From contig DATKGV010000006.1 in the NCBI GenBank assembly GCA_035510575.1, forward strand, positions 1 through 62,319: a stretch of 62,319 nucleotides of DNA. The letters run 5' to 3'. The first letter of the stretch is position 1; every line of letters begins with the position of its first letter. Position numbers and translations under genes: made by a program. This DNA is from Minisyncoccota bacterium (GTDB lineage: Bacteria; Patescibacteriota; Minisyncoccia; Phycocordibacterales; UBA9973). Under the pieces are notes generated by a model. The model worked only from the letters and a program-made list of their open reading frames with translations. It had not been told where the DNA came from and ran no database searches. Positions 2,334-12,058 of this stretch are shown in pieces.

Positions 2334-2990
2334 ATGGATTATTCAACTTACAAAAACTCAATCATAATTCTTGATCAGTCTGCTTGGCAACAGGTTGCTT
2401 TTTCACTTTCCAATATTGATGTGTATAAATTCCTTTCAGATAACAAAATTAAGGCTGTTGCTACATCGGATTCTGCACAGGAACTGTCCTATCAAGCTTA
2501 TAATCCAACACTTTTTGGTGGTCAATATGCAAGTACTGTGACAGCTTCTGAATTAAACTCTAAACAAAGTTATATTCTTTCTAGCTCGAATGGGTCGCTT
2601 ACTTTTCCAAGCTTAGATACAGGATATAACATTGATATTTTGAACCCATTTATTTATTCTATTCCGCGGACACTTTGGGATACTTCTATAGTAATGGAAA
2701 AGTTAAAAAGAGCAACTCGAAGTCAGGCAGATGTAAGTAATATTTATCTTTGCAGAATTTTAAAAGAGATGAATTTAAATTTCTTTATTTTTACAAATGA
2801 TCAAAATCAAATTAAGCAAATAAAAATTGAAGGATTTAAATATTTAAGACCAGATCAACTTTTTTCTTGGATGTGTAGGGAAAATTTTATTGATCCGCGA
2901 AAAGGTGGCTGGAATTTTAAAAAGAGAAAAGAACATAATAAGCAGTGGACTAAACCAGATGTTAAATTTAAGGATATATTAGATTTATGA
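2334..2990 (+). CDS. Hypothetical protein, possibly a PIN-like nuclease fold
   Basis: 218-aa ORF. IIILDQSAW near the N-terminus and FIFTNDQNQ near residue 150 resemble PIN acidic motifs (weak). Its stop overlaps the mod start (ATGA). Confidence 0.5.
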   Translation: MDYSTYKNSIIILDQSAWQQVAFSLSNIDVYKFLSDNKIKAVATSDSAQELSYQAYNPTLFGGQYASTVTASELNSKQSYILSSSNGSLTFPSLDTGYNIDILNPFIYSIPRTLWDTSIVMEKLKRATRSQADVSNIYLCRILKEMNLNFFIFTNDQNQIKQIKIEGFKYLRPDQLFSWMCRENFIDPRKGGWNFKKRKEHNKQWTKPDVKFKDILDL

Positions 2991-4717
2991 ATAAATACGA
3001 TAAATTTTCAAAAGAAGATTTAATAAAGGTTGTTGAAAAACTGGAATCTCGCAAAAAATACGGGTTGATTTGGGATGAGGAAAAAGTTAAAGAGCAATTT
3101 GAAAAAGATGCCGAAAATGCGTTACCGGTTTTGAAGGAAATTAAGGGAAAGGAAATTAAAGACAAAAATGATAAGCCTGTTAATATTTTAATTGAAGGCG
3201 ATAATTATCATGCTTTGTCGGTTTTGAATTTTACGCATCAAGAAAAAATTAACGCAATTTATATCGACCCGCCATATAACACAGGAGCAAAAGATTGGAA
3301 ATATAATAATGATTATATAGATTCAACTGATTCGTATCGGCACAGTAAGTGGATCTCTTTTATGGATAAAAGACTTAGGCTCGCAAAAAATCTTTTAACA
3401 GAGGAAGGCATAATTTGTGTGACTATTGACGACTATGAAATTCCAAGACTTTTACTTTTAATGGAAGAAATTTTTGGAGAATTTAATCATCTTGGCACAA
3501 TTGCTATTAGAAACAATCCTGCGGGCAGATCAACCACAAAAGGAGTTTCAATCACCCATGAATATGCTATTTTTTTTGGAAAATCAGATATCTCTCAAGT
3601 TTTTCGTTTAGAAAGAAGTCAGATACAAAAAGATAGATACGATCAAAAAGACAACAAGGGTTCTTTTGAATGGGTAAATTTTAGAAAACCGGGCAGTATG
3701 CGCGCTGAATCCCCCAGTATGTTCTATCCTGTTTTTATAACGACAGATTCTGTGAGAATTCCAAACATGAAATGGGATTCAATAAAAGAAGAATGGATTG
3801 CCTTAGAAAAACCTCAAAAAAATGAAAAAATATTATATCCAGTCGATGATAACGGCGAAGAAAGACGATGGCGATATGGTGTAGAGAGAGCTAGGGCAGA
3901 AATTGACGAATTTAAACCAAAAATACAGAAAGGTAAACTGCATGCTTATGTTAAAGGCAGGCTAAACGATGAAGGAATTTTACCAATGACATGGTGGGAT
4001 AAAAAAGAGTATTCCTCTACGGCTTATGGTACAAACCTGCTTAAAGATATGTTTTCTGAACTTCAAGCTTTTTCTTATCCAAAATCTATTTTTGCGGTAA
4101 TGGATTGCTTAAAAGTTATGTCGGACAAGAAGGATGCTATTATTTTAGATTTTTTTGCTGGTTCAGGTACTACGGGTCATGCAGTATTAGAATTAAATAA
4201 ACAAGATGGTGGAAGCCGGCAATTTATTCTTTGTACAAACAATGAAAAGAATATTGCCACAGAAGTATGTTATCCAAGAATTGAAAAAGTAATTCAAGGG
4301 TACAAAAATCAAAAAGGTAAAAAAGTTGAAGGTTTAGGAGGTTCTCTTAAATATTTAAAAACAAAATTCGTTAAAAATGCTTCAAGCAAAGACGACTTCA
4401 AAATTCGCATAACTAAAGAATGCACGGAGATGCTCTGTTTGCGAGAAGGTATTTTTGACGAAATAAAAAAGACGAATGATTATAGAATTTTTCAACAGGG
4501 CGACAAAACTTTAGCGGTATATTATTCTTTGGAACATAAAACTTTATCCGAACTTAAAAAAGAGTTAAATAAAATTGACGGGGAAAAAATCTTTTATTGT
4601 TTTACCCTTGACCCTCTCGGCTTAGATAAAAGCGATTTCAGAGGTTGGAATAATGTTTCTTTGGAATCCATTCCGCAAAAAATACTAGATGTATATAAAC
4701 AAATTTATGAATATTAA
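2987..4717 (+). CDS. mod: Type III restriction-modification DNA methyltransferase (Mod; beta-class N6A/N4C)
   Basis: Motif IV IYIDPPYNTG precedes motif I ILDFFAGSGTTGHA. The gene sits immediately upstream of, and overlaps, a res helicase-nuclease gene. Confidence 0.85.
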   Translation: MNKYDKFSKEDLIKVVEKLESRKKYGLIWDEEKVKEQFEKDAENALPVLKEIKGKEIKDKNDKPVNILIEGDNYHALSVLNFTHQEKINAIYIDPPYNTGAKDWKYNNDYIDSTDSYRHSKWISFMDKRLRLAKNLLTEEGIICVTIDDYEIPRLLLLMEEIFGEFNHLGTIAIRNNPAGRSTTKGVSITHEYAIFFGKSDISQVFRLERSQIQKDRYDQKDNKGSFEWVNFRKPGSMRAESPSMFYPVFITTDSVRIPNMKWDSIKEEWIALEKPQKNEKILYPVDDNGEERRWRYGVERARAEIDEFKPKIQKGKLHAYVKGRLNDEGILPMTWWDKKEYSSTAYGTNLLKDMFSELQAFSYPKSIFAVMDCLKVMSDKKDAIILDFFAGSGTTGHAVLELNKQDGGSRQFILCTNNEKNIATEVCYPRIEKVIQGYKNQKGKKVEGLGGSLKYLKTKFVKNASSKDDFKIRITKECTEMLCLREGIFDEIKKTNDYRIFQQGDKTLAVYYSLEHKTLSELKKELNKIDGEKIFYCFTLDPLGLDKSDFRGWNNVSLESIPQKILDVYKQIYEY

Positions 4718-7037
4718 TCTTAAACCATATCAAGAAAAAGCCGTTGATCAGTTGATTGAAACTGCTGTTAAGTTGTTAAATTTTGACGGACCGGGCGAAG
4801 CCTTGGTTTTTCAAGCCCCTACCGGTTCGGGTAAAACTATTATGACTGCTAAATTTATTGAGGGACTTATCAAAGAACTTCCCAATGACGATATTTGTTT
4901 CGTGTGGATGAGTATTGGTAAAGGCGAATTGCATTTGCAAAGCAAGCATTCTTTGGAAAAAGTTTTTGCCGGATTTCCTCGGGTTACTTTGGCCGAAGAA
5001 GAATTTTCAGGTGGACGAGAGAGAATTGTTAAAAATGAAGTCGTGGTGGCTAATTGGGAAAAATTACGAAGCAAAGACAGTAAGACCGGCGAATGGAAAG
5101 TGCTTTTAATGAAAGACGGCGAAAAATTAAATTTCCGTGATGTGTTGGAAAAAACTAGAGAGCAAAGAAAAATTATTTTGATTATTGATGAAAGCCACAC
5201 TAACGCCACCAGCGAAAGAGCTCAAGAATTACGACAGATTATTTCGGCTGACTTGGTTATGGAAATGAGCGCTACGCCAAAATTAATACCAACTGCGGCT
5301 CAGTTGTTTGAAACCAAAGCTGGTTTTGTGAAAGTAAATTCTAAAGATGTAATTGAGGAAGGAATGATTAAAAAAGAATTAATAATTAATGAGGATATAG
5401 AAAAAATTGCAAAGTCGGAAGAAGATTCTCAAACGGCTGTACTAGAAGCTTCCTTTCAAAAGCGACTTGAGCTTTTGAAAGCTTTTAAAAAAGAAGGATC
5501 GAGTATTAATCCTTTGGTTTTAGTACAAATTCCAACAGCCGAAGCCGGCGAGCAAAAAATTGAAGCGGTCAGAAAATTTTTAGCTAGTAAAAATATCACT
5601 GAACGCAAAGATGGACATGGCAACGGGAAACTTGCCGTTTGGTTGGCTGAGCAAAAATCAGAGCTGATTGATTGGATTTCCGAACCGGACAATGAAATTG
5701 AATTTTTAATTTTTAAACAAGCCATTGATACCGGCTGGGATTGTCCTCGAGCTCACATCTTGGTTAAATTCCGAGAAACCCATAATATTGTTTTTGAAAT
5801 CCAAACCGTTGGTCGTATTTTACGAATGCCAGAACAGAAACATTATGCTAATGAAATTTTAAACAAGGGTTATATTTATACCAACCTACAATCAATTTCA
5901 GTTAAAAAAGAAGAATACAATCCGAATATCATCAAACATCTTAAGGCAACTCGTATTAAGAAATATAAACCGATTAAAATTGAATCATACTACAAAGCTC
6001 GTGCTGATTATGGCGATATTACTTCAAGTTTTGTGCCAGTATTTGAAAAGACAGCGAATGCGTATTTTGGCATTTCTAAAAATGGAAAACTTAAGGAAAA
6101 TATAAAAGCAGTTGAAAATAAAGATATTAACCTCGATATTAAAAAGTATCAACAAGAGTTAATTGCTGACACTTCGCTTGATGTGAAAAGTTTTGACGAA
6201 ATTGAAGGAAAAATAAATCCTGACGCATGGGCTAGATTAAATGTTGCAACTGACGAATTGCAGATTTTATTTGAACAAGTTATTAAAAACAACTTAGGAT
6301 CGTTTAAAAATGTTAAGCGTTCTGTTCCGGCTGTTAAAACGGCTATTTATCTTTGGTTTAATAATAATCTTGATGCAGAAAATTGGCCTGACCCGTCTCT
6401 TTTAACTCAAAAAATATTTTTGAATAATAAAAACAGAATTGTGTTTGAACATATCTTATCAAAAGCCATTAGTGAATATGTAATAGTTAAAGAGAAAGAA
6501 GTCCGCAAGCGTGTAGAGGAAAGCGAACAAAAATATTCTTTTGAACTTCAAAAAGAACAATTTTATAATGAATACACTGACGAAATAATTACGGTAAAAA
6601 ATTATGCTTACGAGCCATGTTATTTAAATACAGACCGATCTAACCCAGAGCGGGAATTTGAAACATTTTTAAATATTAATACTTCAAAAATTGATTGGTG
6701 GTGGAAAAATGGAGAAAACAAGCAGGATTATTTTGGTGTTAAATATGAATATCAAAATAATATTTATACTTTTTATCCAGACTACTTAGTTAAATTAACT
6801 GGCGGTCGTCTTGGATTTTTTGAAGTTAAAGATTCAGGCGATCGTGATGGAAAAACTTACACTAAAGCCAAGGCAGAAGCTTTGCAAAAATATATCGCAA
6901 GTCAAAAAAGTAAAAAGTTATTCGGCGGTATTGTTATAGAAAAAAATCGTGCATGGCTTATTAACGACAATAAAATTTTTGATTGGGAAAAATGCGAGCG
7001 TGGTGTTTGGGATGAGTGGGAAGTTTTAAAGTTATAA
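4689..7037 (+). CDS. res: Type III restriction enzyme Res subunit (SF2 helicase plus PD-(D/E)xK nuclease)
   Basis: FQAPTGSGKT (motif I), IIDESH (motif II), QTVGRILR (motif VI), and C-terminal FYPDYLV...FFEVKD. An alternative start is ATG 4707. Confidence 0.85.
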   Translation: MYINKFMNINLKPYQEKAVDQLIETAVKLLNFDGPGEALVFQAPTGSGKTIMTAKFIEGLIKELPNDDICFVWMSIGKGELHLQSKHSLEKVFAGFPRVTLAEEEFSGGRERIVKNEVVVANWEKLRSKDSKTGEWKVLLMKDGEKLNFRDVLEKTREQRKIILIIDESHTNATSERAQELRQIISADLVMEMSATPKLIPTAAQLFETKAGFVKVNSKDVIEEGMIKKELIINEDIEKIAKSEEDSQTAVLEASFQKRLELLKAFKKEGSSINPLVLVQIPTAEAGEQKIEAVRKFLASKNITERKDGHGNGKLAVWLAEQKSELIDWISEPDNEIEFLIFKQAIDTGWDCPRAHILVKFRETHNIVFEIQTVGRILRMPEQKHYANEILNKGYIYTNLQSISVKKEEYNPNIIKHLKATRIKKYKPIKIESYYKARADYGDITSSFVPVFEKTANAYFGISKNGKLKENIKAVENKDINLDIKKYQQELIADTSLDVKSFDEIEGKINPDAWARLNVATDELQILFEQVIKNNLGSFKNVKRSVPAVKTAIYLWFNNNLDAENWPDPSLLTQKIFLNNKNRIVFEHILSKAISEYVIVKEKEVRKRVEESEQKYSFELQKEQFYNEYTDEIITVKNYAYEPCYLNTDRSNPEREFETFLNINTSKIDWWWKNGENKQDYFGVKYEYQNNIYTFYPDYLVKLTGGRLGFFEVKDSGDRDGKTYTKAKAEALQKYIASQKSKKLFGGIVIEKNRAWLINDNKIFDWEKCERGVWDEWEVLKL

Positions 7038-7175: not shown

Positions 7176-7811
7176 ATGGCAGATGAACCATTAAACAATG
7201 AGCAAATAGAGCCTTCTGGCGCATTACCCATAAATATAATGGGTTCTGAACCCTCCAATATGCCCCCTGAAGCCCTAGAATCCCCTAAAAACGCAGATAT
7301 ACCCGTTTCCCTCAATAATGATAATCCTGAAAATAGCCCTATTTCTACACCCATACCCGAAGAAGCTAAATCCGAGGAACTGCCCGCCGAAGGCGGAAAA
7401 ACCAAGGAAATTTCTGAACCTGTGCAAACTCCTGAAACCCGAACGGCTCAAATACCAGTAAATGAGCCGTTGAACCCAGAACCTGAGCCATTAAAATCTG
7501 CACCAGTTTCACCTCCGCAATCACAGCCAGCTCCCGTTCCGATTTTTGTTGAATCGCAACAAAATAAAATTTCTCTTGCTCGTGAACTTCTCATTAAAGC
7601 TCGAAATGCAATTCAATTCCGAAAAAGAAAAAAGTTGGATCGTGTTATGACTTTGTTTCTAAAAAAATCTAAAATCACGAATGATGAAGTGCGGGAATTT
7701 TTGCACGTCTCTGATGCCACAGCGGAAAGATATTTAAATGTTTTGGAAAAAGAAAATAGAATCAAGCAAGTCGGTAAAACAGGACACGCGGTTTCGTATT
7801 CTCGAATTTAA
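7176..7811 (+). CDS. Proline-rich protein with a C-terminal winged-helix DNA-binding domain
   Basis: Low-complexity P/E-rich N-terminal ~130 aa. The C-terminus NDEVREFLHVSDATAERYLNVLEKENRIKQVGKTGHAVSYSRI looks like a wHTH. Confidence 0.65.
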   Translation: MADEPLNNEQIEPSGALPINIMGSEPSNMPPEALESPKNADIPVSLNNDNPENSPISTPIPEEAKSEELPAEGGKTKEISEPVQTPETRTAQIPVNEPLNPEPEPLKSAPVSPPQSQPAPVPIFVESQQNKISLARELLIKARNAIQFRKRKKLDRVMTLFLKKSKITNDEVREFLHVSDATAERYLNVLEKENRIKQVGKTGHAVSYSRI

Positions 7812-7904
7812 TCTGAATTTTTTTGGGGAGTAGGTTTGCGTGCACGCACGGGTGGGGTAGAGTTTTTGTGTAATCACAAAAACTCGGGGCAAGCACGAGT
7901 ATTT

Positions 7905-8214
7905 CGCCTCGGGCATTTTCCGCTAGGGTGTCCATGACTAAAGGACGAGTGCCTGACCCGAATTGCAATCCAGAAATCGAAAGCGAAAGCTACACACTAA
8001 ACACAATATTGAAAAACGTAGAGTGGGGATGGCGAGGGCAGACTCCTCGTAATCGAGGAGAGCCCGACCCGGGGAGAGGAAACTTCCTCTCCCCAAGAAG
8101 TTGCGGGCAATCAAGTGAACGGCTCATTTACTGGTATTTGAGCCGTTCGGTTATTTTGTTTGCTCGCTCATAGGCATCTAGGCACTCGTAGCCCTAGCGG
8201 AAATGCCCGAGGCG
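7905..8214 (+). ncRNA. GC-rich structured element closed by a long-range 24+10 bp stem (unclassified ncRNA or MITE-like element)
   Basis: cgcctcgggcattttccgctaggg (7905-7928) pairs with ccctagcggaaatgcccgaggcg (8192-8214). acgagtgcct (7945-7954) pairs with aggcactcgt (8180-8189). Internal hairpins: ctcctcg-taat-cgaggag, ggggagagga-aact-tcctctcccc, gaacggctca...tgagccgttc. The overlapping ORF 7928-8173 looks non-protein. Confidence 0.45.
8117..8161 (+). terminator. Intrinsic-terminator-like hairpin inside the structured element
   Basis: gaacggctca / tgagccgttc stem followed by ggttattttgttt. Confidence 0.5.
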
Positions 8215-8264
8215 GATGCCGAGGGTGTACCTCTAAACTTTAAATAACCACTGAACTAGAAAAA

Positions 8265-8684: not shown

Positions 8685-8756
8685 GCCCCTGTAGTTTAAT
8701 GGATAGAACTGCGGACTTCTAAGCCGTTAATCGAGGTTCGATTCCTCGCGGGGGCA
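8685..8756 (+). tRNA. tRNA-Arg (anticodon TCT)
   Basis: Cloverleaf folded by hand: acceptor gcccctg/cgggggc, D stem gttt/gaac, anticodon loop cTTCTaa, T arm cgagg-ttcgatt-cctcg. There is one A-G mismatch at the base of the anticodon stem. CCA is not encoded. Confidence 0.85.
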
Positions 8757-8870
8757 CACGTTAGTGAGACCGACCGAGACGGCTTAATGCCGGCTCTTCG
8801 GAGAGTTAAGCACAAAAAGATATTCCTAGTGAGTGCCAGAAAAATATTATATAATTGTGGTAATAATTAA

Positions 8871-9548: not shown

Positions 9549-9666
9549 ATTTTTGATTCATAATTATATTTTTGAGAATATTATAACACAACACTTGCAA
9601 AAAATGTCAAAAAAGTATAGGATAGTGTAAATCTGTAGTTATTTGAAAAGAAAGGAGGAAGACACC

Positions 9667-9732
9667 ATGAAAACGCCGAAAAGGCGCATCAAGGTGCGCA
9701 TCGGCAAAGGCAGTTGCGCCAGGTGCGACTAG
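9667..9732 (+). CDS. 21-aa candidate RiPP precursor peptide MKTPKRRIKVRIGKGSCARCD (not in the ORF track)
   Basis: Strong SD aaggagg lies 5 nt upstream of ATG 9667, and the stop is TAG 9730-9732. A hairpin follows, then the radical SAM/SPASM gene on the same strand. Confidence 0.6.
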   Translation: MKTPKRRIKVRIGKGSCARCD

Positions 9733-9741
9733 TTCACAGCC

Positions 9742-9780
9742 GAGGGGGCGGATACTCGTATCTTCCCCCTCATTATTTTT
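9742..9780 (+). terminator. Hairpin plus T-tract between the peptide gene and the radical SAM gene (leaky terminator/attenuator)
   Basis: gaggggg (9742-9748) pairs with ccccctc (9765-9771). An inner gatac/gtatc stem is present, followed by attattttt. Confidence 0.55.
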
Positions 9781-9799
9781 ATAGAAAGGAAGTGTGTAC

Positions 9800-10879
9800 A
9801 TGGAATGTAAGATTGAAATGCCTCGTCTGGAAGTTGAAACCGAAAACTCGATTTATGAGATCGAATTCGGCGAAATCCAGATAGAGATCACTGGCAAGTG
9901 CAACATGCGCTGTCAGCATTGCAGGGCGGCTAGCCAGCCCAAACAAGACATGCCGATTGATCAGATTATAAAGATCATCCGGTTCGCTCGGCAGTTCAGC
10001 CCAGACTATAAGGAGATCGTACTCTCTGGAGGTGAACCGCTTTTGCATCGTAACTTCGCTGAGGTTCTGAGGCAAGTTCGTTGCAACGGTGGTGAGTTCA
10101 TCACCCTCACAACCAACGGGTCTCTACTCACAAAAGAGCACCTCTCGCTCATTGGAGAGCTGTCCTTTCCGCGCTTTATGCTTTCGGTAAGTCTGGATAG
10201 CCTCAATCCCGAGGAACACGATAAGTTTCGTGTTTATGAAGGGGCTTTTCCCAAGGCTGTTGCGGCTCTGCGTCAGGTGGCGGAGAGCGGATTGCCAAAC
10301 GTTGTCGCTTCAATGCGCTCAACCATTCGGGCATCTCAAATCGGCGAGATGGAAAACATGGTGGACTTCGCCAGAAACCTAGGATGCAAGCGTGTAAGCT
10401 TTTCCGCAATACATCCCGCGGGAAGAGCTATCGAGCGTGACGATCTCTGGATGACTCGCGAACAGAAGTATGCGTTTGTGACTGAGGTTTATCGACTGAA
10501 GGCGTTATTCCCTGACCTCAACGTCACTACAAACGACCCGCTCAAGTGTCTGCTCCGAGGAGAAAACGACATGGGGAAAAACGGGGAGTTGGTTTTTGAC
10601 GGCTGTAGCGCCGGCGCTATTACTTTCAACGTCAACTCCGACGGCACCATGACTCCGTGCGCCTTACTCGATATCCCGATGATGAACACCTTCTCTCTTT
10701 CCATTGAGGAAATGACCGAACGTTATCGGGAGAATCCGATTGTCAAAAACATGCTGGAGATGAACCTGAAGGGTAAGTGCGGCGCTTGCCACCTAAAATA
10801 TCAATGTGGCGGATGCCGGGCTCGTGCCCTGATTCAGATGGGGGATTTCTTGGAAGAGGACCCTCATTGCTGGCTGTAA
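9800..10879 (+). CDS. Radical SAM enzyme with a C-terminal SPASM domain (peptide maturase-like)
   Basis: GKCNMRCQHC (CX3CX2C). SPASM cysteines at FDGCSAG...TPCALL and GKCGACHLKYQCGGCRARA. ATG 9800 is preferred over GTG 9794. Confidence 0.85.
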   Translation: MECKIEMPRLEVETENSIYEIEFGEIQIEITGKCNMRCQHCRAASQPKQDMPIDQIIKIIRFARQFSPDYKEIVLSGGEPLLHRNFAEVLRQVRCNGGEFITLTTNGSLLTKEHLSLIGELSFPRFMLSVSLDSLNPEEHDKFRVYEGAFPKAVAALRQVAESGLPNVVASMRSTIRASQIGEMENMVDFARNLGCKRVSFSAIHPAGRAIERDDLWMTREQKYAFVTEVYRLKALFPDLNVTTNDPLKCLLRGENDMGKNGELVFDGCSAGAITFNVNSDGTMTPCALLDIPMMNTFSLSIEEMTERYRENPIVKNMLEMNLKGKCGACHLKYQCGGCRARALIQMGDFLEEDPHCWL

Positions 10880-10913
10880 TTATCCTTCCAAACAACAAGA
10901 CCGCTTTTCAACG

Positions 10914-10945
10914 AAAACCGTTAGGAGGGCGGTTTTCTATTTATA
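10914..10945 (+). terminator. Intrinsic terminator after the radical SAM gene
   Basis: aaaaccg / cggtttt stem followed by a T-rich run. Confidence 0.55.
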
Positions 10946-10972
10946 TTATGTATTTTATTGTATAATGAAATT

Positions 10973-11437
10973 ATGAATAATGATTTAAAAAAATTTATAG
11001 ATGAAAAATTCACAAAACAAGGCAAGGCTTTAGATTTAGGGGCCGGTGATTTCTTTGACGTCGCTTGTTTAAAACAACTAGGGTGGAAATGTGAAGGTGT
11101 TGATATAAAAACAGGTGTTAATTTAGAAAAAATTTATGAATCAAAAAATGAACCTTTTGATCTGGTTTATTCAAATTATGTAATTCATAAACTAAAAAAT
11201 AGAAAGAATCTTATTCAAACAATATATAATAATTTAAAAAACAATGGATGGTTTTTTATTCAAACTTTTGATAAATCCGACTCAAACAGCACATCTGACA
11301 TATCTCGCGATTATTTGCAAAAAATATTAACTGCACAAGGATTTAAAAATATTAAAATAAAATTGTTCAGCTATTATGATAACGATGAAGGCCACAAGCA
11401 TTGGCATAAAATTTTAGAAGCAACTGGGCAAAAATAA
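10973..11437 (+). CDS. Class I SAM-dependent methyltransferase
   Basis: Motif I ALDLGAGDFFD. TATAAT at 10961-10966 lies 6 nt upstream of ATG 10973, so the tracked TTG 10958 falls inside the -10 box. Confidence 0.7.
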   Translation: MNNDLKKFIDEKFTKQGKALDLGAGDFFDVACLKQLGWKCEGVDIKTGVNLEKIYESKNEPFDLVYSNYVIHKLKNRKNLIQTIYNNLKNNGWFFIQTFDKSDSNSTSDISRDYLQKILTAQGFKNIKIKLFSYYDNDEGHKHWHKILEATGQK

Positions 11438-11539: not shown

Positions 11540-12058
11540 ATGTCAACGTTGCTTAAGCTGGTCTCTACGGCGGTCGTTTTGGCAACCACCAAGCCTTTTG
11601 TTTCGAAGGAGAAATTCGTTCGCGACACCAGCACAAAGGCCAAAGTGAAAATCTCCGGACTCGGAGGAAATTTCACTGCGTGGTTTCTCGAAGGCGACGG
11701 CAAAGTGGAAGCGCCTATCACAAAAACTTCCATCCACATCCACCGGCTGAAAAAGGCCTCAGTGGACACTATGATCATTGAGGAAATCGGCGGAGAAACA
11801 AAAGCCGAAACCACGCTCACCGCAATCTACTCAATGATGAAGAAGCAACCGAGGGGCAAGAAGGGTCTCCTGCTCACTGATGGGTGGGCAAACATCTTCT
11901 ATGTCCGCGATAAGAACGGCGTGCTTCGCGCAGTTAGCGTGGACTGGAACGGTGACGGTTGGCATGTTTTCGGATGCCGTACCGACTACACTGTTGCGTG
12001 GGGTGGCGGCTCTAAGTCATCTCCTCGCAATTTCGTTCTAACGTCCTCATCGAGTTAA
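11540..12058 (+). CDS. Hypothetical protein (172 aa), GC-rich orphan
   Basis: Consensus promoter and a purine-rich RBS region upstream, with a terminator downstream. No motif recognised. The antisense ORF 11374-11820 is rejected. Confidence 0.6.
   Translation: MSTLLKLVSTAVVLATTKPFVSKEKFVRDTSTKAKVKISGLGGNFTAWFLEGDGKVEAPITKTSIHIHRLKKASVDTMIIEEIGGETKAETTLTAIYSMMKKQPRGKKGLLLTDGWANIFYVRDKNGVLRAVSVDWNGDGWHVFGCRTDYTVAWGGGSKSSPRNFVLTSSSS

Follow-up and report, generated by a model that had tools for sequence, protein, structure and literature searches.

The contig DATKGV010000006.1 of a Minisyncoccota bacterium (GenBank assembly GCA_035510575.1), analyzed here over a window of 62,319 nucleotides (nt), carries on its forward strand three neighboring genes, for a peptide of 21 amino acids (aa), a radical S-adenosylmethionine (SAM)/SPASM enzyme, and a small methyltransferase, which probably form a cassette for a ribosomally made peptide with post-translational modification (RiPP). 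The peptide gene (MKTPKRRIKVRIGKGSCARCD), present as a single copy in the window, occupies positions 9667 to 9732 (+), from ATG 9667 to a TAG stop at 9730 to 9732, and a strong Shine-Dalgarno (SD) sequence, AAGGAGG (9652 to 9658, +), lies 8 nt 5' of its start. Between this gene and that of the enzyme stands a hairpin with a U-rich tail, here called H1 (stem 9742 to 9771, tail 9772 to 9782, +), recognized by sequence, folding, and comparison, and followed by the ribosome-binding site AAAGGAAG (9785 to 9792, +). The radical SAM/SPASM enzyme of 359 aa is encoded at 9800 to 10879 (+), ATG 9800 to TAA 10879, where the ATG is preferred over GTG 9794 because the homologues likewise begin with MEC. 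A canonical intrinsic terminator lies 3' of this gene (10897 to 10948, +; hairpin 10897 to 10936 plus a T-run; z-score of −3.1), and then comes the gene for a class I SAM-dependent methyltransferase of 154 aa (10973 to 11437, +; Pfam Methyltransf_23, 4e-14), a putative tailoring enzyme. The original prediction, made from the window alone, had proposed a two-gene cassette. Its peptide gene, with the SD sequence and the 21-codon reading frame, and its radical SAM gene were found as described, while the dedicated methyltransferase and the terminator after the radical SAM gene had been missed.

For comparison we gathered 2 genome loci, from a scan of genome contigs with a single protein query, 80 metagenome loci, from a scan with an alignment query, and 5 long contigs. 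A locus was counted if the start of the enzyme and at least 200 nt of upstream DNA were present. This gave 67 peptides, 60 from the genome and metagenome loci (43 distinct peptides), 5 from the long contigs, and 2 from distant relatives. One locus, L007, is identical in DNA to the window and is not an independent observation; the idea of module swapping, for which L007 had been taken as an 87% relative with a 99% identical methyltransferase, was dropped when DNA alignment showed it to be the window sequence.

All 67 of these loci have a short plus-strand open reading frame (ORF) directly 5' of the enzyme, ending 13 to 206 nt before the enzyme start in the 60 loci and likewise in the long contigs, and the layout AAAGGAGG-n-ATG recurs at nearly all of them. 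The peptides are polybasic and 17 to 45 aa long, with a variable Lys-rich N-terminal part followed by [KR]-V-R-I-G-K-G-S-C-x-I-C-D (consensus MQPEIKKKPEKKRVKVRIGKGSCSICD). The window peptide has 4 Lys, 4 Arg, and 1 Asp, and its Lys/Arg-rich N-terminal part, with a net charge of +7, is as basic as had been described; its C-terminal core, K-V-R-I-G-K-G-S-C-x-x-C-D, is conserved across the loci. Conservation is concentrated in the last 13 residues, where Gly13, Cys17, and Cys20 never vary and Ile is strongly preferred at two positions (41 and 38 of 46 distinct cores). At the DNA level the core exists in 46 distinct versions, whose codons differ mostly by synonymous changes, the invariant Gly being written GGC 30 times, GGT and GGA 7 times each, and GGG twice, and the invariant Cys as TGC or TGT in a ratio of about 3:1. 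Four seeming exceptions carry a short follower past the motif, for example ...VKVRSGQNNCRTCDSNGPPTK. The peptides upstream of two more distant enzymes (about 390 to 406 bits to the family profile) are MKTRRRIKSGKHACGRCSD (19 aa) and MKIIKVESGANNCDTCI (17 aa), and the enzyme of L077, at 38% identity, is preceded by ...VIRIGLGCCIECD. Peptide variants follow the enzyme subclades, with ...GQNNCRTCDS... in the group at 63 to 66% identity and ...GxGCCxECD in L041 and L077. Against NCBIfam and Pfam the peptides have no match at an E value as permissive as 10. Judged from its presence in all 67 loci, its unvarying residues, the mostly silent codon changes, and its strong SD sequence, the ORF is a real gene, as the original prediction had supposed, and it is co-conserved with the radical SAM enzyme and the methyltransferase. 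Enzyme homologues that never adjoin a conserved short ORF, which the original prediction had named as grounds for its refutation, are thus the opposite of what the loci show.

The enzyme has the radical SAM cluster motif C34-x3-C38-x2-C41 (Pfam Radical_SAM, 1e-24), conserved in 46 to 48 of 49 aligned family representatives, the remainder being alignment gaps, and a SPASM set of seven Cys, C269-x12-G282-x4-C287, C327-x2-C330-x5-C336-x2-C339, and C357, conserved in 46 to 49 of the 49; the last spacing is x2, compared to the textbook x3. The CX3CX2C motif and full SPASM set that had been read from the window are thus near-invariant family features. The Pfam SPASM model does not match the enzyme at an E value of 0.01 or below, and in NCBIfam the enzyme aligns over its full length, at subthreshold scores, with SPASM family models. 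Searched against the NCBIfam radical SAM/SPASM subfamilies, as the original prediction had suggested, it reaches no cutoff, the highest scores being those of NirJ2 (159 bits, cutoff 500), GeoRSP (150, cutoff 400), TIGR04053 (143, cutoff 395), and AhbD (132, cutoff 500), with lower ones for NirJ (109, cutoff 515), PapB (78.1, cutoff 340), PqqE (73.6, cutoff 381), StsB (72, cutoff 625), and MftC (69.8, cutoff 265). Ten more distant family representatives likewise stay below all NCBIfam cutoffs. Taken as families, none in Pfam or NCBIfam corresponds to the peptide and none does so at threshold to the radical SAM enzyme or the methyltransferase, and searches of the open-access full-text literature found no account of the cassette.

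An AlphaFold2 (AF2) model of the enzyme (predicted local distance difference test [pLDDT] of 82, predicted TM-score of 0.84) has as its top Foldseek matches SkfB, SuiB, CteB, anSME, and PqqE, all peptide-modifying enzymes, with EpeE also among the matches. Relatives form more than 120 clusters at 90% identity, are 62 to 86% identical to the window enzyme and mostly 359 aa long, and the named ones come nearly all from metagenome-assembled genomes (MAGs) of the candidate phyla radiation (CPR), labeled Moranbacteria, Paceibacterota, Magasanikbacteria, or "Patescibacteria group." An exhaustive profile search found about 54 representative clusters (50% identity) above 200 bits, below which comes a generic SPASM plateau at 150 to 180 bits. 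A PADLOC match to prokaryotic viperin (pVip; 65 bits) spans residues 26 to 227 only, the shared radical SAM core, and the viperin identity, which calls for a full-length match and no SPASM domain, was rejected.

Clustering of all ORFs of the loci revealed the methyltransferase as the single further conserved neighbor. Of 58 distinct loci that are informative, 52 have it next to the cassette, directly 3' of the radical SAM gene in 42, directly 5' of the peptide gene in 9, and downstream on the opposite strand in 1, and it is absent at 6 loci with long flanks. The family is small, with 296 database matches, mostly of 154 to 160 aa, and its named members are again nearly all CPR MAGs, with one labeled Ignavibacteria; the matches sit on contigs equal in size to those bearing the radical SAM gene, which fits co-localization. 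An LDLGAG motif is invariant, and the AF2 model (pLDDT of 95) matches only generic small-molecule methyltransferases, TehB, BioC, JHAMT, PEAMT, and Ecm18. We also note a C-terminal motif, GHKHWHKILE (window 11393 to 11425, residues 141 to 151), in which an alignment of 19 homologues shows no change at H141, H143, W144, and H145; this His-rich motif could be a metal- or substrate-binding site.

Sister enzymes related to P0146 (L088 to L091), from MAGs labeled Patescibacteria, Woesearchaeota, and Rickettsiales, have in all 4 loci a Lys-rich peptide of another type (MKTKTKTNVTVVVKAAKNSCSTSGSYK, MKNKKKEVKKIKIEKNACCTCGSFK, ...KVCQNSCTTSGSYK, and MIKKIRKIKVCKNTCSTSGSYK) ending in ...K-N-[ST]-C-[ST]-T-S-G-S-[YF]-K, which in one of the four, L088, is encoded downstream of the enzyme. 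In place of the 154-aa methyltransferase, an Amidohydro_2-like protein (about 255 aa) and a GNAT acetyltransferase are their partners, at three loci each. Common to the peptides of both families is a basic N-terminal part followed by [KQ]-[GN]-[STAN]-Cys. Since the type of peptide changes together with the enzyme clade, the sister family supports the RiPP interpretation.

In the window, H1 begins 9 nt past the peptide stop, as had been described from the sequence, with GAGGGGG (9742 to 9748) pairing with CCCCCTC (9765 to 9771) and an inner stem GGAUAC/GUAUCU, and is followed by AUUAUUUUUAU (9772 to 9782). A hairpin of −12 kcal/mol or lower, usually −17 to −36 kcal/mol, is present in 41 of 48 distinct spacers between peptide and enzyme, at a median of 14 nt past the peptide stop. 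The stem sequences are unrelated between clades (GAGGGGAGGG, CAAGGAGGGC, GGCGGGTAGCG, and GTGGTGATTGT, for example), and since they differ completely, it is the structure and not the sequence that is conserved. Rfam gives nothing credible at the hairpin, the P2 sRNA reaching 28.8 bits against a threshold of 80. The hairpin had been likened to the leaky terminators that set the ratio of precursor to enzyme in RiPP operons; the structure is kept widely, but a T-rich tail follows only 24 of the 41 hairpins, and attenuation would be one reading of it. We propose a role as a partial terminator or an mRNA-stabilizing structure. By analogy with sboA-albA, where a hairpin likewise lies between the precursor and maturase genes, and with similar operons, H1 may set the peptide-to-enzyme ratio. 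Behind the radical SAM gene, 38 of 39 distinct spacers to the methyltransferase have a canonical terminator, a hairpin followed within 12 nt by 5 T or more, and the units of the cassette are therefore [peptide-H1-radical SAM-terminator] and [methyltransferase]. A compact AT-rich subclade (L031, L033, L038, L053/L073, L065, and L070) has neither the hairpin nor an adjacent methyltransferase.

The explanation that in our view best accounts for the whole, and which we consider reasonably probable, is a three-gene cassette of the radical SAM-RiPP type that is near-exclusive to the CPR/Patescibacteria. That the peptide is the substrate of the enzyme appears very probable. In this scheme the strong ribosome-binding site would drive translation of the 21-aa peptide, H1 would let the peptide message exceed the enzyme message, and the terminator after the radical SAM gene would end the transcription unit. 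The enzyme would bind the C-terminal segment K-V-R-I-G-K-G-S-C-x-x-C-D directly and, on cleaving SAM, generate a 5'-deoxyadenosyl radical that abstracts a hydrogen from the core. An intramolecular thioether might then form from an invariant Cys, most likely Cys17 held at auxiliary cluster I, to the carbon beside a carboxylate, that is, to the Cβ of the terminal Asp or the Cα of the C-terminal residue, and the product would be a small C-terminal macrocycle as with PapB. The 154-aa methyltransferase could subsequently methylate this product, for which the remaining thiol or a carboxylate is a plausible acceptor. Candidate roles of the product include a signal, a host-interaction factor, a metal binder, and a cofactor precursor, all of them possible. 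Such a system would be a new radical SAM-RiPP family, set apart by the lack of a RiPP recognition element (RRE), by minimal polybasic precursors with an extreme C-terminal core, by the dedicated methyltransferase, and by its CPR members.

Several observations weigh against this explanation or parts of it. The cassette is known here from sequence and predicted structures, so that translation and modification of the peptide are putative. The enzyme falls below every curated RiPP maturase cutoff and is not a member of the PapB family, and its best subthreshold hidden Markov models (HMMs), like those of the distant members, include the tetrapyrrole enzymes NirJ2 and AhbD. It has no RRE, a common but not universal feature of such maturases, since only 26 residues precede the cluster motif, and no PqqD match in Pfam. 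An RRE protein, a protease, an exporter or transporter, and an immunity gene are not conserved nearby, either in the ORF clustering of the loci or in the 5 long contigs, and the fold of the methyltransferase does not disclose the acceptor atom. The peptide-enzyme spacer of the window folds at −20.4 kcal/mol with a z-score of −2.3, and 4 of 200 shuffles are equally good; taken by itself this fold is suggestive but not compelling, being only modestly better than the shuffles, and 7 of the 48 distinct spacers have no hairpin. As for the chemistry, the Asp is replaced in some peptides, and both Cys are kept though a single thioether needs one. Finally, the C-terminal cross-linking by PapB was shown for Gly, D-, and β-residues and not for ordinary L-residues such as Asn, Ser, and Ile (PMC12373016).

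The thioether is nevertheless the likeliest single reaction, although we favor it only tentatively. The original prediction had linked the Cys-X3-Asp spacing of the peptide to PapB-type maturases. As a spacing this stood in part: C-x-x-C-D ends the core in 48 of 60 loci, but it is not invariant. Cys20 is followed by Asp in those 48 loci, by Asn in 3, Ser in 3, and Ile in 1, and otherwise by GD, TD, or SD, or, in four cases, by Asp with 4 to 7 residues after it; Asn, Ser, and Ile are found solely as the last residue of the peptide. All peptides consequently have a carboxylate at most 2 residues past Cys20, be it that of the Asp side chain or the α-carboxylate of the C terminus. In PapB the donor Cys is N-terminal to the acceptor and the hydrogen is abstracted from the carbon α to a carboxylate (PMC12373016). 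PapB accepts a C-terminal α-carboxylate and refuses a carboxamide, its spacing is flexible, and the Cys binds auxiliary cluster I (PMC12373016). Because the carboxylate position matches this published rule, a PapB-like thioether was chosen as the likeliest reaction. Assignment of the enzyme itself to the PapB type did not hold, with 78 bits against a cutoff of 340, no RRE domain, and NirJ2, GeoRSP, TIGR04053, and AhbD as the nearest HMMs. Compared with PapB/PapA (freyrasin, NF047865), the C-x3-D from Cys17 is present in most peptides and the carboxylate rule is kept by all, but PapB has an RRE that the enzyme here lacks, the CX3D motif is repeated six times in PapA, a longer peptide, as opposed to one motif at the extreme C terminus of a polybasic peptide of 17 to 45 aa, and the present cassette has a dedicated methyltransferase partner.

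The ligation of auxiliary cluster I bears on the same question. An eighth Cys, C250, is conserved in 10 of 49 representatives, all of the close clade, which ruled it out as a family-wide fourth ligand of this cluster, and it aligns with a non-Cys position in CteB. With C250 thus limited and without an equivalent in CteB, the cluster may leave a site free for a Cys of the substrate, as CteB and PapB do. CteB, of the SCIFF (thermocellin) system, and the sactipeptide maturases SkfB and AlbA provide among the closest solved folds (SkfB, E = 7e-16; CteB, 3e-13), with the seven-Cys SPASM set in common, and since no Cys of CteB aligns with C250, ligation of cluster I by three Cys may be a common property. 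Sequence identity is only 19 to 22% (CteB, 20 to 22%), however, the RRE is absent here, and the StsB model gives 72 bits against 625. The SCIFF, SkfA, and SboA precursors also differ from the peptide here, SCIFF having six Cys in 45 residues compared to 2 Cys in 21 aa.

That the peptide and enzyme are substrate and maturase, but with another chemistry, is a minority possibility to which we give real weight. Oxidation of Cys to formylglycine as by the anaerobic sulfatase-maturating enzyme (anSME), L-to-D epimerization of the conserved Ile as by YydG/EpeE, or a sactionine (α-carbon) link to a residue N-terminal of the Cys is each possible, as would be a C-C or other cross-link. The architecture is anSME-like, with about 360 to 370 aa, a radical SAM core with full SPASM domain and no RRE (TM-score of 0.67), anSME and EpeE are both among the structural matches, and anSME also recognizes a short Cys-containing motif directly. 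The strong conservation of the two Ile positions would suit an epimerase, the replacement of Asp by Asn, Ser, or Ile speaks for a reaction other than the thioether, and C250 in the close clade could fully ligate cluster I in the manner of anSME. On the other hand, the anSME motif C/S-x-P/A-x-R is absent from the peptide, identity to anSME is 16 to 18%, a dedicated 21-aa peptide stands in place of a sulfatase, and the 25 NCBIfam families listed as scoring highest for the enzyme include neither an anSME nor an epimerase model. Two invariant Cys with a nearby carboxylate more simply fit Cys-based cross-linking.

It is unlikely, though less so than the explanations discussed further below, that the product of the cassette is a cofactor or a small metal-binding molecule derived from the peptide and used inside the cell, following the logic of pyrroloquinoline quinone (PQQ) and mycofactocin, and not a secreted peptide. 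The core is near-invariant across enzymes that have diverged to 38 to 60% identity, like that of PqqA and MftA, whereas antimicrobial RiPP cores usually diversify, and some precursors have just 17 to 21 aa. There is no conserved exporter, leader protease, or immunity gene, and the nearest HMMs are the cofactor maturases NirJ2 and AhbD, with MftC and PqqE weaker. The mycofactocin (MftA/MftB/MftC) and PQQ (PqqA/PqqD/PqqE) systems share with the cassette a short precursor with a variable N-terminal part and a near-invariant C-terminal core ahead of a radical SAM/SPASM enzyme, a reaction centered on C-terminal residues, and the lack of an exporter. They differ in that Tyr and Glu are missing from the core here, an RRE protein of the PqqD/MftB kind is absent, and the MftC and PqqE models reach only 70 of 265 and 74 of 381 bits. 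No oxidoreductase, redox gene, or other client enzyme is conserved beside the cassette, the strongly polybasic N-terminal part is unlike PqqA or MftA, and 6 of 58 loci without the methyltransferase, together with a radical SAM gene present only as a pseudogene in some genomes, would be odd for an essential cofactor. The radical SAM/SPASM families AhbD, NirJ, NirJ2, TIGR04053, and GeoRSP are the best HMMs, matching end to end at 130 to 160 bits, and their members are similar in length and without an RRE. However, their cutoffs, 395 to 515 bits, are far above these scores, AhbD and NirJ act on tetrapyrroles while a co-conserved peptide precedes the gene here, and no heme genes were seen in the 5 long contigs.

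A role of the short ORF as a regulatory leader or arrest peptide, controlling attenuation at the hairpin while the radical SAM enzyme acts elsewhere, is very improbable. It would agree with the ORF being always directly 5' of the radical SAM gene, even where the methyltransferase has moved, with a terminator-like hairpin within reach of a terminating ribosome, and with arrest-peptide-like conservation in the last 13 residues. But the peptide is equally conserved ahead of the 7 hairpin-less spacers, the sister-family peptide of L088 is encoded past the enzyme gene, an alternative antiterminator pairing was not apparent, and the 5 long contigs show no evident pathway for tetrapyrroles or another substrate around the gene. 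The invariant Cys-x-x-Cys beside a radical SAM/SPASM enzyme of maturase fold is a classical RiPP signature. A chance open frame in the 5' untranslated region of an ordinary radical SAM gene might be suspected from its mere 21 codons, absent from the ORF track of the original prediction and called as a gene in few of the source assemblies, but it is refuted by the conservation across the 67 loci described above, with its invariant residues, synonymous variation, and strong SD sequence, and its probability is negligible.

The GC content of 0.48 to 0.53 over 9650 to 10850, compared to 0.25 to 0.34 in the immediate flanks, agrees with the contrast that had been noticed earlier and taken to suggest horizontal acquisition, but the suggestion itself does not hold. 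At third codon positions (GC3) the peptide gene has 0.82, the radical SAM gene 0.59, and the neighbors 0.20 to 0.30. In about 30 related loci a GC-rich radical SAM gene stands beside an AT-rich methyltransferase gene whatever the GC content of the flank, with GC3 of 0.5 to 0.8 for the peptide and radical SAM genes and about 0.2 for the methyltransferase; in the clade at 77 to 82% identity the values are 0.48 to 0.65 for the radical SAM gene and 0.19 to 0.29 for the methyltransferase. Fourfold-degenerate sites of the window radical SAM gene are 28 to 44% identical to those of its relatives at 73 to 82% identity, and among the radical SAM genes of these loci the range is 28 to 53%, near saturation. 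As the contrast recurs at near-saturated divergence, the GC-richness is old and gene-specific and not a sign of recent arrival, a reading that we rejected. GC3 across the window as a whole ranges from 0.17 to 0.61. Lateral spread of the cassette within the CPR is plausible all the same: the flanking genes vary by locus, the copy in a Saccharibacteria-labeled MAG is 80% identical, and the cassette is also found on short contigs binned as Ignavibacteria and Planctomycetaceae. Against this, the window and L084 share the order radical SAM-methyltransferase-CYTH-NUDIX. Since the viral contigs contained no relative of the cassette, it does not appear to be phage-borne.

Most relatives have a structured leader of about 115 nt directly 5' of the peptide SD sequence (consensus AGUCCUAUUUCUUUUAUUGCUCUUUUGGGUCAAUAAAGUUAAAUGAAAAUCCAUAGUGGAUUUUCAACCCAAAGAGUAAUU..AUAGGCAAGAAAGGAGG), with copies at L003:193-308, L012:3741-3856, L014:1344-1456, L083:5750-5864, L084:5603-5716, and about 20 other loci. 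RNAalifold folds it into a long interrupted hairpin of 24 pairs, 11 of them with compensatory double changes. A covariance model of the leader found further loci 5' of the peptide, mostly repeats of its own sequences, with L083 (74.7 bits) and L021/L023 (85 bits) among the distinct matches. The leader has no Rfam match, and it is absent from the window (9549 to 9666), where the covariance model gives nothing at an E value of 1 or below. We regard it as a candidate new cis-regulatory RNA of the cassette.

In a Saccharibacteria-labeled MAG (L002:3286-4870, the same as L072), the radical SAM gene is a pseudogene and the methyltransferase gene beside it is intact. An IS200-like gene for a Y1 transposase (Pfam Y1_Tnp, 3e-10), with CTGTGCAAAGTCGAACTTTGCACAG hairpins on its flanks, has displaced residues 1 to 70, and there is an additional frameshift near residue 260. 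Within the window, an orphan ORF of 172 aa (11540 to 12058, +) with GC3 of 0.61 lies between the AT-rich methyltransferase gene and a CYTH-domain gene; it has no match in Pfam, NCBIfam, or PADLOC and is not conserved beside the cassette elsewhere. Upstream of the cassette is a type III restriction-modification pair (2987 to 7037, +) composed of Mod (2987 to 4717, +; PADLOC MTase_III, 1.6e-78) and Res (4689 to 7037, +; Pfam ResIII, 7.7e-19). Farther along, an ORF-poor stretch of about 415 nt (7826 to 8240, +) with GC content of 0.45 to 0.51, 450 nt upstream of a tRNA-Arg(tct) gene (8685 to 8757), folds at −189.8 kcal/mol with a z-score of −10.5, none of 100 shuffles being as good, with long-range pairing of 7906 to 7928 with 8193 to 8215. 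It gave no Rfam match at an E value of 1 or below and no transfer-messenger RNA, neither phage genomes nor the loci gathered here contain a counterpart, and we consider it a candidate large structured noncoding RNA. A palindromic element of 33 nt, TGAACGGCTCATTTACTGGTATTTGAGCCGTTC, is present in two exact inverted copies, at 8118 to 8150 and 7439 to 7471, one of them inside the ORF at 7176 to 7811.

CPR/Patescibacteria have tiny genomes and are usually reported with few or no biosynthetic gene clusters. One survey found none in its Patescibacteria MAGs (PMC11613949). For enzymology, an RRE-less SPASM enzyme with a natural substrate of 17 to 21 aa would be a compact model for leader-independent recognition, and it may be a natural C-terminal macrocyclase. 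A three-gene cassette kept with a near-invariant core in Paceibacteria-, Moranbacteria-, Magasanikbacteria-, Falkowbacteria-, and Saccharibacteria-labeled genomes points to a function worth retaining. It is possible, if rather doubtful, that the cassette and the sister family together represent a RiPP system characteristic of ultra-small episymbiotic prokaryotes, the CPR and possibly DPANN archaea. It is just as speculative that the features such a system would have, namely, near-leaderless polybasic peptides of 17 to 45 aa, RRE-free recognition by a new SPASM clade, a C-terminal Cys cross-link, and methylation, all hold jointly. If this were true, the product would be no variable antibiotic but would serve a conserved purpose in the cell, such as that of a cofactor, of a carrier for metal or redox equivalents, or of a factor for signaling or attachment to the host.

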